DNA of 64,000 nucleotides, from the NCBI RefSeq assembly GCF_048403405.1, contig NZ_CP183129.1; one strand, given 5' to 3'. The notes beneath the pieces were generated by a model. The model saw nothing but the letters and a program-made list of their open reading frames with translations, was not told the origin of the DNA and searched no databases. A program made the translations under genes and the position numbers. Source of the stretch: Escherichia coli. GTDB lineage: Bacteria; Pseudomonadota; Gammaproteobacteria; Enterobacterales; Enterobacteriaceae. Every line of letters begins with the position of its first letter. Positions within the stretch are counted from its first letter, which is position 1. Of this stretch, positions 15,568 to 24,049 are shown piece by piece.

Positions 15568-15965
15568 TACTATTCCTCAAAAAACCAAAAGCGCGTTATT
15601 TACCCAAAAAGGGAACGCGTTAACTCGCAGAAAGAAAAATACAGTTCGCTATCCTACAAATTATCATTCGTCGATGTAAGGAATAGTTATGAATACAGGC
15701 GTCTCAAGGCACATAAACACAAAAAAAGATTAATATTCTACTGTTTTATTTTGACGCGGGTTGAAAGAGGCAGAATTAAAACCTCGTAAATTGAAATATA
15801 TATTGATAGAGTGAATGTATTTTAGGTGAATAATAAGCGTTATTTATTTGACGATTTATAGCAACTCAATATTATCCTCTCGTATAAATATACATTAGGT
15901 GATAGATTAACCTTCGCTATTTTCTCATCCTGTATCGAATATATTTATTTCCTGAATAATTAATC
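15568..15965. promoter_or_regulatory. Divergent acrS / acrEF promoter-operator region
   Basis: About 400 bp AT-rich intergenic region between divergently transcribed acrE and acrS; specific sites not resolved. Confidence 0.5.
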
Positions 15966-16628
15966 ATGGCAAAAAGAACCAAAGCTGAAGCCCTGAAGAC
16001 CCGGCAAGAACTGATTGAAACTGCCATCGCCCAGTTTGCGCAGCATGGCGTAAGCAAGACGACGCTCAACGACATTGCCGACGCCGCTAACGTTACGCGT
16101 GGCGCTATCTACTGGCACTTCGAGAACAAGACCCAACTGTTTAATGAGATGTGGTTGCAACAGCCTTCATTGCGGGAGTTAATCCAGGATCACTTGACTG
16201 CTGGGTTAGAGCATGACCCGTTTCAGCAATTGCGTGAAAAATTGATTGTTGGCTTGCAATATATTGCCAAAATTCCCCGCCAGCAGGCGTTGCTGAAAAT
16301 CTTATATCACAAATGTGAATTTAATGATGAGATGCTGGCAGAGGGAGTGATACGCGAAAAGATGGGTTTTAATCCGCAGACTCTCCGCGAAGTATTGCAG
16401 GCATGTCAGCAACAAGGTTGTATAGCAAATAATCTCGATTTAGATGTTGTGATGATTATTATTGATGGTGCCTTCAGCGGAATTGTTCAAAACTGGTTAA
16501 TGAATATGGCGGGTTATGATCTTTATAAACAAGCACCCGCACTGGTCGATAACGTATTAAGAATGTTCATGCCAGATGAAAACATAACGAAATTAATTCA
16601 TCAAGCGAATGAATTAAGTGTCATATAA
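15966..16628 (+). CDS. acrS: TetR-family transcriptional repressor of acrEF (EnvR)
   Basis: 220 aa; N-terminal TetR HTH (TRQELIETAIAQFAQHGVSKTTLNDIADAANVTRGAIYWHFENK). Confidence 0.93.
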   Translation: MAKRTKAEALKTRQELIETAIAQFAQHGVSKTTLNDIADAANVTRGAIYWHFENKTQLFNEMWLQQPSLRELIQDHLTAGLEHDPFQQLREKLIVGLQYIAKIPRQQALLKILYHKCEFNDEMLAEGVIREKMGFNPQTLREVLQACQQQGCIANNLDLDVVMIIIDGAFSGIVQNWLMNMAGYDLYKQAPALVDNVLRMFMPDENITKLIHQANELSVI

Positions 16629-16630
16629 AT

Positions 16631-16810
16631 TCACATTCTGTCCTGAAAATCCAGTTCGTCACAGTTAACCAGTTTTAGTGGATTAACTGAGTTCATATTG
16701 CGGCATTTGTCTGTTTCTGTTGCCAGCAGTTCAATCCACTGCATCAGTAAAGTATCAAACAGAAAAACGAAGACAGCGAAAACGACGAGCCACCAATACT
16801 TGCGAATCAT
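16631..16810 (-). CDS. yhdU: Small inner-membrane protein
   Basis: 59 aa from MIRKYWWLVVFAVFVFLF...; the 68-aa ORF in the track has an N-terminal extension. Confidence 0.7.
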   Translation of the reverse strand: MIRKYWWLVVFAVFVFLFDTLLMQWIELLATETDKCRNMNSVNPLKLVNCDELDFQDRM

Positions 16811-16893
16811 TACCTGAGCCTGTGCATGTTTAACCAAGTCTGGCAGGAAATATACACGAAATGAATAATCTGAAAACCAGGCTTACACTTCCT

Positions 16894-17778
16894 TTACTTT
16901 GCAATGAGATCGGGGTCAACTTCGCTTAACCTGCTTCGTTTTGACAGGTTGCCGGTCTTTCTTTTTTTCACTTTCGCCAGTTCTTCCGCAGAGTAATGCG
17001 ACGTGACATCCAGCCGTCGAAGCCCCATTTTGATGTACTCGCTGTTGATCTCAATACCAATGAATTTTCGCCCGCTGGCGACGGCTACGGCACCGGTAGT
17101 AAAGCTACCGGCAAACGGGTCGAGAACGATATCGCCTGGGTTGGAAGAGGCGAGAATAATGCGTTTCAGTAAGGCTTCCGGTTTTTGCGTCGGGTGATTC
17201 TCATATTCATCCATTAAATAACGCACGCGCGGAAAATCCCAGACGTTACCCGGTACTTTTTGATGATTGTAAGGCTGTGGAGGATTTTTGCGATAATCGA
17301 TTAACGCACGCTGCGATCCGGTTTTGGCTTCTACCAGAATAGCATCACCGTTGAACGTGTAGTTCTTTGCGTCTTTCACCATCATCAGGATGGGTTCGTA
17401 CATGGAGCCGTAGTGTTTTTTCGCCTGCACTCCAGAACTGTCATATGACCAGACGATGCGACTTTTGATGGTAAAAAGCTTGCGGCACTGGAGATCGATA
17501 AAGGGCATGTTTTCCGTACTGTTCATGATGTACATGCTGCCCTGCTTTTTCAGAACGCGGTGGCACTCTGCAATCACTTCAAACAGCCAGTCGATAAACA
17601 GATCTTCTTTCCAGGCTTCGATCAGACCATCAAAATTTTTACCGATGTTATACGGTGGGTCGGCAAAGATCAGATCGACACTTTCGGCGGGGATCTTTTT
17701 AAGTTCGGTTAATGCATCACCCTGGATGATGGTCTTTGCTTCATTACCAAATCGGGTCGGTTCACATCCTGTTCTCAT
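16894..17778 (-). CDS. yhdJ: DNA adenine (N6) methyltransferase
   Basis: 294 aa from MRTGCEP; DPPY catalytic motif (IFADPPYNIG) and SAM-binding region; K-12 neighbour of fis. Confidence 0.92.
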   Translation of the reverse strand: MRTGCEPTRFGNEAKTIIQGDALTELKKIPAESVDLIFADPPYNIGKNFDGLIEAWKEDLFIDWLFEVIAECHRVLKKQGSMYIMNSTENMPFIDLQCRKLFTIKSRIVWSYDSSGVQAKKHYGSMYEPILMMVKDAKNYTFNGDAILVEAKTGSQRALIDYRKNPPQPYNHQKVPGNVWDFPRVRYLMDEYENHPTQKPEALLKRIILASSNPGDIVLDPFAGSFTTGAVAVASGRKFIGIEINSEYIKMGLRRLDVTSHYSAEELAKVKKRKTGNLSKRSRLSEVDPDLIAK

Positions 17779-20102: not shown

Positions 20103-20324
20103 ATGAGCAAAGTTAAATCATCGCAAGACCAATTTGATCGCATCATTCGTGAGGAGGAATGCCGACGCCTTACCGGTATTTGCCGAACGACGCGTTATAT
20201 GATGGAAAGGAAAGGGGTGTTTCCAGCCCGTCGTCAGTTGGGGGCTCGTTCTGTCGGTTGGTTGCTGTCTGAGGTTAATGATTGGCTTGAACGTCAACCC
20301 AAAGCACAACTGAAATCGGCGTAA
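20103..20324 (+). CDS. alpA: AlpA-family transcriptional regulator (excisionase-like HTH)
   Basis: 73 aa from MSKVKSSQDQ with RBS gaggg; RLTGICRTTRYMMERKGVFPARRQLGARSVGWLLSEVNDWL matches the AlpA family pattern. Confidence 0.8.
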   Translation: MSKVKSSQDQFDRIIREEECRRLTGICRTTRYMMERKGVFPARRQLGARSVGWLLSEVNDWLERQPKAQLKSA

Positions 20325-20673
20325 GGTGAGTTATGGTATATAAAACAAAGGCGACCGGGGGCGGTCGCCAATGGATACACACTAAACTTGAACGCATCAC
20401 CAACAATGCCACATTTGCGGCTGGTGGGCAATGTGATCAGTCAGATTTGGTTCGTTCCAAGGTTTGCAACGAGAGCTTTTTCCTGTGCTCTTTAAGGAAT
20501 TTCTCAAGAGCAAACGAACAAGGTGCGAATCTTTCTGATTCATGTTCATGCGCTATATTTTTGCGTCGTCTCTTACGAGTTGGTGATGGTGTTTTGGTTG
20601 ATTCTGTGTCGCTCATGGTGCTGTCCTGTAAAGCAATGCGCCTGCGTTCCTCAAACTATGGCGCTGATAGTGG

Positions 20674-20979
20674 CTATTCCTGCCCTTTGACCTTGCGTCG
20701 CTGGAGTTCTTCACGCGCGACGGTGACGAGTTGCCCGATCTCCTCGGCGGCTTTGACTCCGATTTTTTCAACCTGCGCTAGGGCATCGAGCGAAGAAACC
20801 AGGAGGTTTTCTCCGCTTCCTTCTGCCTGGCGGCGGGCGATTTCACCGCGCATGGCGGTTACTATGAATCCGGCGTTGCTTTCACCGTCCAGTTTTACGG
20901 ATTCCATGCCTTCAATAACATCATGCGGGATCCGAGCTGTCAGTGATTGTGATTTTGCGTTTTTTGAACCTGTAGCCAT
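20674..20979 (-). CDS. Putative small DNA-binding regulator, possibly ribbon-helix-helix
   Basis: 101 aa from MATGSKNAKS with strong RBS gagga; LTARIPHDVIEGMESVKLD resembles an RHH strand-helix; divergent from the downstream module. Confidence 0.5.
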   Translation of the reverse strand: MATGSKNAKSQSLTARIPHDVIEGMESVKLDGESNAGFIVTAMRGEIARRQAEGSGENLLVSSLDALAQVEKIGVKAAEEIGQLVTVAREELQRRKVKGQE

Positions 20980-20994
20980 CTGTAATCCTCTCAA

Positions 20995-21175
20995 TGAAAG
21001 TGTAAGACAATATACACATAAAAAGTCTTACATAAAAGCATTGACATGTAAGCCACCTATAAATAAAGTTACTTACACCTTGTTAATGCAAGGTGCAGAA
21101 ACGACGAAACCCCGCACTGTAGGAGCAGTAACGGGGCTTCTAACCACCAACGATAGCAAGATTATCGAGGCAGCT
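20995..21175. promoter_or_regulatory. Divergent promoter region with an array of TGTAAG/CTTACA half-sites
   Basis: TGTAAG at 21001 and 21047, CTTACA at 21027 and 21072, forming two inverted-repeat pairs; TTGACA at 21041. Confidence 0.45.
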
Positions 21176-21379
21176 ATGAGAAATCATACCATACACCCGC
21201 AAGGGCGGGACTCGTACAACCTGAATAAATACATCTGGCGTTTTATCGCCCTGAGCACCGCACAACCGCGCGTGATTCACATCGTGGCCACCAGCGAACA
21301 GGAAGCACGCCAGCAATCCCCGGCTGGCTGCGTGATGGTATTCGCCGCCCGCATTCGTCAGGGGGGGTGCCATGCCTGA
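21176..21379 (+). CDS. Small hypothetical protein (67 aa)
   Basis: ATG at 21176 preceded by RBS gagg; retained portion of the 348-aa track ORF, which is otherwise antisense to the regulator gene. Confidence 0.4.
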   Translation: MRNHTIHPQGRDSYNLNKYIWRFIALSTAQPRVIHIVATSEQEARQQSPAGCVMVFAARIRQGGCHA

Positions 21380-21692
21380 TATGTCAAATTACCAGTACCT
21401 GATTAATCCGCATTTTAACTGTGAGCATGATATTGCTAAAAAGGTTTATTCCGCTGCGGATGGGGCTACTGACAATATATCAATGGCTGTTGCGTCAATT
21501 GGTAGCCTGATGTGGCATGCGTCAGAAAATGAGGAATATGACGCAAAGGCCATGCGCATTGATATGGGTAATATCGGTTTGTTACTGGCAATGCTTGGAC
21601 ATTTTGATATTTCGTTACGGTGCACCATTGAAAATGCCACAGATGCATTAAATGCCATAAAGAAAGCGAATACTGATTCAAATCGGGGATAA
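21372..21692 (+). CDS. Hypothetical protein (106 aa)
   Basis: ORF in the replication module, co-directional with primase; no recognisable motif. Confidence 0.5.
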   Translation: MPDMSNYQYLINPHFNCEHDIAKKVYSAADGATDNISMAVASIGSLMWHASENEEYDAKAMRIDMGNIGLLLAMLGHFDISLRCTIENATDALNAIKKANTDSNRG

Positions 21693-21698
21693 ATAATC

Positions 21699-21998
21699 AT
21701 GAGAACATATTTATCTGGCTTGACTGCCAGCGGTTATGCACACCCTAAAATTATCCCCGGCGCTATTTATCTGGATAAGAACGGTAACAGAGTAACGGTA
21801 AAAGAACTGATGTTTGACCGTGTTTATTTTATTCGTGATGGCTATTCATTTCATAGTTCGCTGAACGTGGAGATCTTTATTTGCAGATTCCGGCGGGAAA
21901 TCCCGCTTTCCAGAAATAACCATGTGTCATGTATGGATGTTGATAAAAAACTACAGGAACTGAAAAACATGATTGCCGCGTGGAGAGAGCAGAAATGA
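21699..21998 (+). CDS. Hypothetical protein (99 aa)
   Basis: ORF whose stop overlaps the primase start (ATGA coupling). Confidence 0.5.
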   Translation: MRTYLSGLTASGYAHPKIIPGAIYLDKNGNRVTVKELMFDRVYFIRDGYSFHSSLNVEIFICRFRREIPLSRNNHVSCMDVDKKLQELKNMIAAWREQK

Positions 21999-23812
21999 AA
22001 AAAGCGCCAAATTTAAAACACCAGCCGCGTGACAAAATGACGGAAGTCATCATTTTTGCGGGTAGTGATGCGTGGGCACATGCGAAGCAGTGGCAGGAAC
22101 AGGACGGGCGACTGGCAGGCGATAACGTGCCACCTGTCTGGCTTGGAGAGCAACAACTTGCCGAACTGGACAACCTGCAAATTGTACCGGACGGACGCTA
22201 TCGCGTGCGTCTCTATCAGGCGGGGTTATTGCGTCCGGGGCTTGTTAATACCATCGGGCAGAAACTGGCAGCGGCAGGTGTCAGGGATGCTGATTATTAC
22301 CCTGAAGGAATGCACAGCCAGAAACGGGAGAACTGGCGCGAATATCTGGAACGTGAGCGGGGAGAGCTGGCGGAAAAGAAAAAGGTAGTTGAACTGCCTG
22401 TAAAGAAAAAAGAGCGGGTAAAAGACGATAACGCTTCATCACTGGCGCTTAACCAGATGGGAGCAAGTCAACGCGGCGAAGTTCTCCTGGCACATTATGG
22501 CGGTGAACTGGCGATTCATGCCGACTCTGACACTGTTCACCATTACAACGGCGTTGTATGGGAGCCAGTACAGGATAAAGAATTACAGCGAGCTATGGCG
22601 CAGATTTTCATTGATGCGGAGATCAGCTATTCGCAGAACGCCATTAAATCGGCGGTCGATACCATGAAGTTAAGTTTGCCTGTAATGGGGAATACAGCCC
22701 GTAACCTGATTGGATTCAGTAACGGGGTATTTGATACCAGAACAGGTAATTTTCGGGAGCATAACAAAAACGACTGGTTGTTAATTGCCAGTGAATTACC
22801 TTTCAGCCCACCAGCAGAGGGGGAAACGCTGGCAACACATGCGCCGAATTTCTGGAAGTGGTTACGCCGTTCGGTGGCTGAGAATGACCGCAAGGCGGAT
22901 CGCGTACTGGCGGCATTATTCATGGTGCTGGCGAACCGGTACGACTGGCAGTTATTCATTGAGGTAACAGGTCCAGGGGGAAGTGGTAAAAGCGTGATGG
23001 CGGAGATTTGCACCATGCTGGCGGGTAAGGCTAATACAGTATCAGCAAGCATGAAGGCGCTGGAAGATGCAAGGGAACGTGCGTTAGTGGTTGGCTTTTC
23101 TCTGATTATCATGCCGGATATGACCCGCTACGCTGGTGATGGGGCAGGGATTAAGGCCATTACAGGCGGTGACAAGGTGGCAATTGACCCGAAACACAAA
23201 GCTCCCTACTCAACGCGTATTCCGGCAGTAGTGCTGGCGGTTAACAATAACGCCATGTCATTCAGTGACCGCAGCGGGGGGATCTCACGTCGTCGGGTGA
23301 TATTCAATTTTTCGGAAGTTGTACCGGAGAACGAACGTGATCCGATGCTGGCGGAAAAAATAGAAGGTGAGCTGGCGGTAGTGATTCGCCATCTGCTTAC
23401 ACGGTTTGCTAACCAGGACGAAGCCAGACGCCTGTTATATGAGCAGCAGAAATCTGAAGAAGCACTGGCGATAAAGCGAGAGGGGGATTCGCTGGTGGAC
23501 TTCTGCGGCTATCTCATGGCGTCGGTAATGTGTGATGGCCTGTTAGTGGGTAATGCTGAAATTGTGCCATTCAGCCCGCGCAGATATCTCTATCATGCCT
23601 ATCTGGCTTATATGAGGGCACATGGGTTTGGTAAACCTGTAACACTGACGCGCTTCGGTAAAGATATGCCGGGGGCAATGGCGGAATATGGCAGGGAGTA
23701 TATGAAACGGAAAACGAAGCACGGTTTGCGTTCAAACGTGACACTGACGGAGGAATCAGAAGACTGGATGCCATCATGTGTATCGGTCACTAATGACGAT
23801 AGCAAAAATTAA
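21995..23812 (+). CDS. Primase-helicase of the phage/plasmid P4-alpha type (PICI pri-rep)
   Basis: About 605 aa; Walker A GPGGSGKS in the C-terminal half; followed directly by the iteron array. Confidence 0.8.
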   Translation: MKKAPNLKHQPRDKMTEVIIFAGSDAWAHAKQWQEQDGRLAGDNVPPVWLGEQQLAELDNLQIVPDGRYRVRLYQAGLLRPGLVNTIGQKLAAAGVRDADYYPEGMHSQKRENWREYLERERGELAEKKKVVELPVKKKERVKDDNASSLALNQMGASQRGEVLLAHYGGELAIHADSDTVHHYNGVVWEPVQDKELQRAMAQIFIDAEISYSQNAIKSAVDTMKLSLPVMGNTARNLIGFSNGVFDTRTGNFREHNKNDWLLIASELPFSPPAEGETLATHAPNFWKWLRRSVAENDRKADRVLAALFMVLANRYDWQLFIEVTGPGGSGKSVMAEICTMLAGKANTVSASMKALEDARERALVVGFSLIIMPDMTRYAGDGAGIKAITGGDKVAIDPKHKAPYSTRIPAVVLAVNNNAMSFSDRSGGISRRRVIFNFSEVVPENERDPMLAEKIEGELAVVIRHLLTRFANQDEARRLLYEQQKSEEALAIKREGDSLVDFCGYLMASVMCDGLLVGNAEIVPFSPRRYLYHAYLAYMRAHGFGKPVTLTRFGKDMPGAMAEYGREYMKRKTKHGLRSNVTLTEESEDWMPSCVSVTNDDSKN

Positions 23813-23824
23813 ACTTATGGAATA

Positions 23825-24049
23825 ACTGTTCACCACTGTTCACCCTGTCATAAATATCTTTTATATCAGTATATTATAGGGTTAACAGTTATTTATGAAC
23901 TGTTCACCAAACTATTCACTGTTCACCTTTTTGATTGTTTATTGAGCTTCAAGGGTGAACAGTGGTGAACAGTTGGTGAATAGTTTTTGTGAAACTGTTC
24001 ACCCCTTAACCTTATGAATTAAAAGATAAAATATCAAAAGGTGAACAGG
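23825..24049. repeat. Candidate origin of replication: array of about 9 ACTGTTCACC / GGTGAACAGT iterons with AT-rich spacers
   Basis: Direct copies at 23825, 23835, 23899, 23918, 23994; inverted copies at 23954, 23964, 24040; degenerate copies at 23909 and 23975; immediately 3' of the primase gene. Confidence 0.75.

Follow-up and report, generated by a model that had tools for sequence, protein, structure and literature searches.

What keeps the replication genes of a resident phage satellite silent is the question raised by a divergent gene pair at positions 20,674–21,379 of a 64,000-nt stretch of Escherichia coli DNA (NCBI RefSeq assembly GCF_048403405.1, contig NZ_CP183129.1; the whole of this stretch is called the window). 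A 101-aa gene on the minus strand faces a 67-aa gene on the plus strand. The interval is probably, though well short of certainly, where early control (immunity) is exerted in a capsid-forming phage-inducible chromosomal island (cf-PICI), and in it a ribbon-helix-helix (RHH) repressor would act on a four-site operator and read-through from alpA would bypass it. Sequence features, predicted fold, protein-site co-variation and selection against stop codons were computed in silico.

Genetic organization of the locus

Over this region, annotated E. coli chromosomes match the window exactly (coordinate in the reference locus L001 plus 8399 gives the window coordinate). The island is about 15 kb long and lies between yhdJ and fis. 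Its genes are, in order, an integrase, a 245-aa gene, an AlpA-type regulator, the 101-aa gene, the 67-aa gene, two small genes and a primase, followed by major capsid protein, prohead protease, portal, connector, HNH, and small and large terminase. Tail genes are absent from the RefSeq annotation of the island, which by gene content is a cf-PICI next to fis, carrying the gene set described for capsid-forming PICIs (10.1101/2022.09.08.507074). The fis site is used by many Gram-negative PICIs (PMC10111431). Helper-dependent induction and transfer, with tails supplied by the helper, have been shown for EcCIEDL933 (10.1101/2022.09.08.507074). P4-like satellites are recognised by psu, delta, sid and epsilon in company with alpha and int, and the annotation of the island shows no psu, delta or sid. 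Of 5426 complete E. coli genomes, 1465 have related sequence, and the module is present in the model island EcCICFT073 with four sites at the same offsets.

An initial annotation of the locus, made from the sequence alone, placed both genes correctly. The 101-aa gene starts with an ATG at 20979, preceded at 6 nt by the strong ribosome-binding site (RBS) that had been claimed for it, GAGAGGA (plus-strand TCCTCTC, 20986–20992). The 67-aa gene (21176–21379) has GAGG 6 nt before its ATG and is, as stated there, the tail of a long open frame of 348 aa (20333–21379). RefSeq annotates both short genes in identical DNA. The gap between them, given as about 180 bp, measures 196 bp (20980–21175). Four TGTAAG/CTTACA half-sites were indeed found in it, at 21001–06 (+), 21027–32 (−), 21047–52 (+) and 21072–77 (−), as was a TTGACA −35 box at 21041–46. 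Missed at that stage was that the small gene belongs to the Icd/Kil-like family of cell-division inhibitors and stands first in the primase operon. The main features of the interval are as follows.

20674–20979, minus strand: putative repressor gene; RHH N-terminal domain of YlcI/YnfO type and long C-terminal helix
21000–21009, plus strand: candidate operator site 1, GTGTAAGACA, covering the region where the repressor transcript is inferred to start
21009–21014, minus strand: inferred −10 of the repressor promoter, TATATT, between sites 1 and 2
21025–21033, minus strand: candidate operator site 2, GTCTTACAT on the plus strand, between TATAnT and TTGAC(A)
21041–21069, plus strand: early promoter, TTGACA (21041–46), 17 nt, TAAAGT (21064–69); 10 of 12 consensus positions in a promoter scan
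21046–21055, plus strand: candidate operator site 3, ATGTAAGCCA, abutting the −35 hexamer
21070–21079, minus strand: candidate operator site 4, TACTTACACC on the plus strand, right after the −10 and over the predicted transcription start

Candidate operator sites and promoters

The half-sites have longer forms, TGTAAGAC / GTCTTACA and TGTAAGCC / CTTACACC. Site starts lie about 23, 46, 68 and 91 nt from the repressor ATG in every related locus. The order across the gap is fixed: sites 1 and 2 lie around the minus-strand TATAnT, TTGAC(A) lies between sites 2 and 3, and sites 3 and 4 lie around the plus-strand −10. TTGAC of the early promoter is kept in at least 80% of loci, and TGTGTATAnT is conserved on the minus strand between sites 1 and 2; these promoter hexamers are conserved while the sites between which they lie vary. 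The −10 of the repressor promoter rests on the conserved TATAnT, because this promoter falls below the threshold of the promoter scan. The array is two-fold symmetric, with the orientation + − + − in most alleles and + + − − in 'KN' alleles. The sites had been grouped into two inverted-repeat pairs; the sites stand, and the pairing gives way to four even units 22–23 bp apart, which also accommodate the + + − − alleles.

TGTAAG is not over-represented in the window (21 copies vs 23.5 expected), so that the four copies within 77 bp form a local cluster. Among 20,000 dinucleotide-preserving shuffles of the 196-bp gap, 2.7% contained any hexamer in at least four copies and 0.2% contained four copies in + − + − order. 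The comparative evidence for an operator is much stronger than this shuffle statistic.

Co-variation of strand residues and site sequence

The comparison included the model island EcCICFT073 and 24 related loci drawn from eight or more genera, among them Escherichia, Enterobacter, Xenorhabdus, Photorhabdus, Erwinia, Serratia and Yersinia; the loci are related by descent, and quoted probabilities are for that reason inexact. Homologues of the 101-aa protein are spread across Enterobacterales. The protein is well conserved among relatives apart from residues 12–15 of its predicted N-terminal strand, with at least 16 strand variants among 120 cluster representatives. These variable residues co-vary with the site sequence in at least 10 classes, including the following (strand residues 12–18, then site).

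SLTARIP or SVTARVP: TGTAAG(A/C)C
LTTVRVP or LFTVRVP: TGTGTTTC
QISIRIP: TGTGATTC
MTTIRVP: TATATCAC
QLNARFP: GGTATTCA
MISTRVP: GTGTAG(T/G)C
xKNxRxP: GTGTG(T/C)AT
ALKARVP (EcCICFT073): GTGGGssACA

Other parts of the locus do not track the sites. AlpA of EcCICFT073 and of loci L018 and L023 is 94–97% identical; identity is 91% between the window and EcCICFT073 for the Icd-like protein, and 91% between the window and L016 for the repressor C-terminus. In all three comparisons the sites differ. Conversely, the window and L022 both have TGTAAG with Icd only 36% and AlpA only 32% identical, and the site class is constant where Icd is only 36–46% identical. By these controls, the first ~30 residues of the RHH protein are the only part of the locus, among those that could be tested, with which the sites change. 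As binding sites of AlpA or of the Icd-like protein the four sites were rejected, because their class changes at near-constant AlpA and Icd. The co-variation is strong comparative evidence for a repressor and its operator. It upholds the operator part of the repressor/operator switch proposed in the initial annotation, the site sequence changing with the protein strand at fixed positions and promoter hexamers. The claim that the regulator is distinct from AlpA also agrees with it, near-identical AlpA alleles being paired with different site classes.

Family and predicted fold of the 101-aa protein

The 101-aa protein belongs to NCBIfam YlcI_YnfO_N (NF041551; 71.3 bits, E = 4.9e-20, curated cutoff 30 bits), its residues 9–50 aligning with positions 1–42 of this 42-position N-terminal domain profile. 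RefSeq labels the gene 'YlcI/YnfO family'. In the monomer model the N-terminus is extended and is followed by helices 19–28 and 35–54 and a long helix 59–100. A Foldseek search with this full-length model was uninformative because the long helix dominates; the N-terminal domain was modelled as a linked dimer instead. Two copies of residues 1–57 were joined by a flexible linker, and 23 homologues in the same construction served as the alignment. The prediction (pTM 0.71, core pLDDT about 90) has strand 10–18, helix and helix, twice, with the N-terminal strands paired antiparallel, which is the arrangement of the RHH fold. The closest structural matches of the predicted dimer are TraY and single-chain Arc. 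The protein is thus predicted to be an RHH dimer, and its strand residues are predicted to bind DNA sequence-specifically. The RHH-like N-terminal segment noticed earlier is borne out by this structure prediction as a predicted RHH DNA binder.

Searching PDB sequences by profile gave a marginal match of residues 45–86 to the helix-hairpin-helix region of Hef (E = 0.006). The stretch concerned reads L-x-x-V-E-x-I-G-x-K-x-A-x-E-I, and AlphaFold gives one continuous helix there. Ile73 and Gly74 are invariant. No match to the protein was found by tblastn against 50,697 phage records. In EcCICFT073 the gene (L029 12473–12652; NC_004431 1380473–1380652) has an in-frame deletion that spares the RHH domain and the last 8 residues.

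The long frame overlapping the cassette

The cassette lies within a long plus-strand open reading frame (ORF), described by the following line.

20333–21379, plus strand: long eta-like ORF, 348 aa, the last 67 codons of which are the Icd-like gene

The frame is open up to 20330. The ORF starts with an ATG at 20333, 9 nt past the alpA stop, behind the RBS AAGGTGAG; it runs antisense to a small gene, orf59, and to the repressor gene, then through the operators and the leader. In most loci a Shine-Dalgarno sequence and an ATG stand near the opening of the frame, close to the end of an upstream alpA, Bro-N or AntA gene. GenBank has a 348-aa 'Icd-like protein' for the long ORF, and many records annotate the long form. 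In EcCICFT073 the long ORF is c1487, of 428 aa, its N-terminus with a faint Bro-N/Ant remnant.

Stops are absent from this frame where other frames have many. Within the AT-rich gap 19 of 23 related loci have 0 stops in the long frame vs 5–8 in each other frame, and antisense to the repressor gene 19 of 23 have 0 vs 2–11 in the others; most loci continue without stops for another 300 nt. The antisense frame is open in 15 of 16 genes, while synonymous resampling predicts a probability of 0.1–0.47 per gene (10–47%). In this register a stop arises when a codon ending in T precedes a Gln or His codon (CAN). At 99 such wobble positions in 20 distinct genes T was never found, against a baseline of 31% (A 36, C 38, G 25). 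Stop-forming trinucleotides number 1 in this register vs 83 and 113 in the other two. An artefactual origin of the long ORF was rejected on the stop counts, the resampling, the exclusion of wobble T and its own Shine-Dalgarno sequence and ATG. Judged from these counts, stops are actively avoided in the long frame and the overlap is under selection. The initial annotation had treated the frame as a mere host of the small gene; that view is replaced by one in which it appears as a conserved gene of P4 eta type, translated and coupled to alpA.

Neighbouring features

The features around the cassette are listed in the order of their coordinates.

20010–19 and 20031–40: two perfect 10-bp palindromes, GTGATATCAC, read from the sequence
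20103–20324, plus strand: alpA-like helix-turn-helix gene, 73 aa, of the activator/excisionase family of Gram-negative PICIs
20350–20369, minus strand: intrinsic terminator for the transcript of the repressor gene and orf59, with a GC-rich stem of 8 bp and then TTTGTTTTAT, found by a terminator scan
20437–20616, minus strand: orf59, gene of a small basic protein, 57 nt downstream of the repressor gene, not in RefSeq
21106–21146, plus strand: conserved leader, a stem-loop (21106–21140) followed by near-invariant TCTAACCA (21139–46)
21176–21379, plus strand: Icd/Kil-like gene, 67 aa, first cistron of the early operon
23806–24048: replication origin downstream of the primase gene, with CTGTTCACC repeated at least nine times, in both orientations

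The alpA-like gene is annotated by RefSeq as a helix-turn-helix regulator, matches phrog_2790 and phrog_66 (excisionase/regulator) and aligns with Phage_AlpA of related loci. The palindromes lie 21 bp apart around AT-rich ATATAAAATAT, about 65–90 bp before the alpA ATG. By their form, which resembles the site of a dimeric regulator, they are a candidate control site of the alpA promoter and possibly a target of a helper-phage inducer or of AlpA. On the plus strand the stem of the terminator at 20350–20369 is not followed by a T-run.

A small ORF with a common FALE-x-F motif occupies the position of orf59 in related loci, with poor conservation, and orf59 too lies antisense inside the long ORF. 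It matches phrog_21027 (E = 5e-15), a PHROG of no assigned function, and no NCBIfam family; PADLOC and toxin-specific libraries were not searched. A recognisable toxin family adjacent to the repressor gene, as in a type II toxin-antitoxin pair, is thus absent from these searches.

In the leader stems 86% of the cells are paired and 10 of 18 pairs have compensatory changes. The observed covariation was reached in 0 of 500 shuffles, and slid controls had at most 3 such pairs. A small hairpin around the RBS of the Icd-like gene follows TCTAACCA. Part of the leader conservation could come from coding in the long frame. Rfam searches of 15–30 kb at E ≤ 1 and of 20950–21400 at E ≤ 10 gave no C4, isrK or other credible leader family; weak matches to SprD and mir-92 were dismissed as chance. 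In five loci (L004, L008, L009, L012 and L022) the first leader hairpin is replaced, about 95–115 nt from the repressor ATG, at the predicted early transcript start, by sequence that holds the consensus DnaA box TTATCCACA (TTGTCCACA in L004).

The 67-aa protein matches NCBIfam NF033153 (71.2 bits, cutoff 25) over residues 19–62; by this membership it is an Icd-like inhibitor of host cell division, and RefSeq labels the gene 'host cell division inhibitor Icd-like'. A sequence pattern is common to this protein and the P4 kil reading frame. A tblastn search of 50,697 phage records gave it one match, in a 16.5-kb induced element, and did not recover P1's own icd at E ≤ 1e-3. After it the early operon continues with orf106, DUF4222 and the primase (21372–23812).

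The four sites were also considered as iterons of the primase and rejected: the iterons are the CTGTTCACC repeats at the origin, which differ from TGTAAG. The CTGTTCACC iterons contain TGTTCACC, the octamer of P4 ori/crr type 1, and the cf-PICI therefore appears to use an origin of P4-alpha type.

Upstream of the island, an IS1 lies between acrS and yhdU in the reference (L001 7436–8133) and is apparently absent from the window (about 15900–17000), as judged from lost collinearity.

Proposed regulation

In the proposed scheme the 101-aa protein would be an Arc/Mnt-type RHH repressor whose dimers bind four sites of 8–10 bp, 22–23 bp apart. Binding at sites 1 and 2, around the −10 of the repressor's own promoter, would give autoregulation; binding at sites 3 and 4, around the −10 of the strong back-to-back promoter, would control the Icd/Kil-like, DUF4222 and primase genes. 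Dimers are probably joined through the long C-terminal helix, which would make binding cooperative. With the sites occupied, replication and the toxic division inhibitor would be off in the quiescent island, and alleles with different site recognition would have allele-specific immunity. When a helper phage turns on alpA, transcription would read into the long ORF, and coupled translation would prevent its premature termination. Read-through would then reach the replication operon from upstream, bypassing the repressed promoter, and convergent transcription would shut down repressor synthesis.

AlpA is necessary for induction of such islands (PMC6092414; 10.1101/2022.09.08.507074). It is sufficient in EcCICFT073, where a fusion to 'ORF3' responds to it by activation (PMC6092414); c1487, the long ORF of 428 aa, is probably this ORF3, an identification made here. 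Since AlpA is both necessary and sufficient, the repressor, to whose switch the initial annotation gave control of induction, is more likely bypassed than inactivated, and a bypass also agrees with activation of the ORF3 fusion.

A wider reading is offered tentatively, with rather more doubt than belief. The cassette, made up of the RHH gene, its partner ORF, two promoters and the four-site operator, may lie antisense in a translated alpA-coupled gene so as to provide two mutually exclusive routes to the replication operon. One would be the local promoter under the allele-specific repressor; the other would be helper-triggered read-through whose coupled translation silences the repressor gene. 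The arrangement might then be the protein counterpart of P4 RNA immunity and the missing repressor layer of Gram-negative PICIs, model islands included.

Several points weigh against an immunity region of this kind. Every functional step, from binding, repression and autoregulation to cooperativity and the read-through bypass, is inferred. A Pfam search of the 101-aa protein returned no RHH or any other family even at E ≤ 10, so that the profiles of Arc, RHH_1, CopG and others do not recognise it. Alignment by hhalign with single sequences was weak for Arc (E = 0.0088, probability 4.6%, with the R-x-P register correct) and for Mnt (E = 0.12). RHH proteins normally bind adjacent sites, and a half-site spacing of 22–23 bp is unusual. 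By consensus the promoter of the repressor gene itself is weak, and the promoter scan did not call it. Four loci (L003, L004, L008 and L025) have a stop in the leader; in L003, L008 and L025 the frame antisense to the repressor gene is open and out of phase with the icd-like gene, and in L004 the antisense frame has one stop. The product of the long ORF is mostly of low complexity, rich in Ser, Cys and Arg, and what is selected may be translation as such and not the protein. The EcCICFT073 version of the repressor has 59 aa and lacks the entire C-terminal helix; either the helix is dispensable or the allele is crippled, and the truncation may weaken repression in the strain of the published experiments. 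Over-expression of AlpA alone induces EcCICFT073 (PMC6092414), and the repressor may be little needed for induction.

Four alternatives were weighed. The RHH protein could be a local autoregulator only, for example an antitoxin-like partner of orf59, with the Icd-primase operon under AlpA alone. An RHH gene with a small gene downstream resembles a type II toxin-antitoxin layout, the position of orf59 is conserved, and induction of EcCICFT073 by AlpA alone (PMC6092414) would fit. This is nevertheless unlikely: an autoregulator has no need of sites 3 and 4, which in every allele flank the −10 and start of the strong divergent promoter, 57 nt separate the two genes, and orf59 matches no toxin family and is poorly conserved.

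It is still less likely that only one of the overlapping frames is real, the long ORF being a by-product of composition or the repressor gene being spurious. Antisense frames of genes are often open, annotations disagree (short genes in RefSeq, the long ORF in many GenBank records), and the long product resembles low-complexity sequence. The open frame, however, differs from the codon-aligned shadow frame; none of the 99 wobble positions at which T would create a stop has T, and A, C and G are all used there; the AT-rich gap is stop-free in the long frame only; and this frame has a Shine-Dalgarno sequence and ATG of its own. In favour of the repressor gene stand its match to a curated family, the confidently predicted fold and the co-variation of the sites.

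A role as activator or as architectural, centromere-type RHH protein (like ParG or omega) in replication, partition or packaging is very improbable. The even spacing and variable orientation of the sites (+ − + − or + + − −) recall heptad arrays of omega type, and the weak Hef match of the C-terminal part (E = 0.006) is helix-hairpin-helix-like. In the RefSeq annotation, however, no ParA partner occurs in the island; the sites overlap core elements of both promoters, which is a geometry of repression, and the origin lies elsewhere (23806–24048).

Least credible is binding of the four repeats by AlpA, the Icd-like protein, primase or integrase with a match to the RHH gene by mere linkage, for although these genes are all neighbours that could be co-inherited and PHROG families 6196 and 1743 (Icd-like protein) are labelled 'transcriptional repressor', the site class changes while AlpA is 94–97% and Icd 91% identical, stays the same where Icd is 36–46% and AlpA 32% identical, follows RHH residues ~1–30 only and not the C-terminus, and differs from the primase iterons, which lie at the origin.

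Comparison with known systems

The immI region of phage P22 has the Mnt repressor, its operator O-mnt and Pant of the arc-ant operon. Mnt, like the protein predicted here, is a small self-regulating RHH repressor with a C-terminal helical oligomerisation domain, encoded divergently from the operon it represses, and its operator overlaps back-to-back promoters. Unlike the window, P22 has one 17-bp Mnt operator with adjacent half-sites, where four sites 22–23 bp apart are found here. The window protein has no detectable sequence-family membership in common with Mnt, the target is Icd/primase and not arc-ant, and the cassette lies antisense inside another gene.

Satellite P4 (PLL-vis-eta/kil, PLE, seqA, CI RNA) shares with the island an alpA/vis homologue, a long ORF with an internal promoter, an Icd/Kil-like C-terminus with an internal start, an alpha-like primase and TGTTCACC iterons. 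The eta frame of P4 stays open from near vis, across PLE and the CI region, into kil, which follows the Icd-like pattern. P4 immunity is overridden when the long ORF is translated from the upstream promoter (PMC10111431). The two differ in that P4 immunity is a CI RNA, whereas the island has a protein repressor gene with its own promoter and operators on the opposite strand; the island also lacks sid, delta and psu and has its own capsid genes. The Rfam models C4 (RF01695) and isrK (RF01394) found nothing in the window at E ≤ 10, while they do find P4 CI/seqA and L018. A blastn-short comparison of the region with P4 gave no DNA similarity, and the parallel is one of architecture and protein level. 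In L018, isrK and C4 elements (1780–1965) lie downstream of the Icd-like domain, beside the RHH cassette. This locus holds both, and protein and RNA immunity can therefore coexist.

In Staphylococcus aureus pathogenicity islands and related PICIs, Stl (Rpr) is likewise encoded divergently from the satellite replication operon (str-xis-pri-rep) and shows allelic diversity (PMC6092414). It differs in being a helix-turn-helix protein released by a helper-phage protein; Gram-negative islands are induced through AlpA in published work. In the immI region of P1/P7 (c4 antisense RNA, icd, ant) a division inhibitor of the Icd family also heads a tightly silenced operon, but control in P1 is by C4 RNA, of which the window has no match.

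YlcI (DLP12) and YnfO (Qin) of E. coli K-12 share the 42-residue N-terminal domain (NF041551), and YlcI has the same R-x-P strand-helix pattern. Unlike the window protein, K-12 YlcI, the family's founding member, has 64 aa, consists of the RHH only, without the long C-terminal helix, and is encoded next to cos/nohD. Inspected by eye, the sequence upstream of K-12 ylcI has no evident four-site array. The gene (L030 4252–4446) is transcribed away from nohD and the cos site of DLP12. With YlcI in DLP12, lambdoid helper phages thus carry a homologue of the satellite DNA-binding domain beside packaging genes.

Significance

In the 2018 paper with EcCICFT073 as model island, whether Gram-negative PICIs have a global repressor was left unclear. 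A literature search that included later searchable papers returned no paper describing the module or the 101-aa protein. The interpretation in the initial annotation is, as a whole, partly supported. On comparative grounds the "missing" repressor of Gram-negative satellites has a strong candidate in this protein. An RHH repressor with divergent promoters is nothing out of the ordinary; the site spacing, the allelic series of recognition, the satellite context and the antisense nesting are unusual. The at least 10 strand/site pairs on one RHH scaffold can be used in the study of RHH specificity and in building orthogonal repressors. The antisense overlap, which synonymous-site statistics place under selection, suggests a simple switch in which read-through, by transcription and translation, bypasses the repressor and turns it off. 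The module offers a candidate mechanism for the silence of these satellites, and a candidate reason why islands resident together might not regulate one another.

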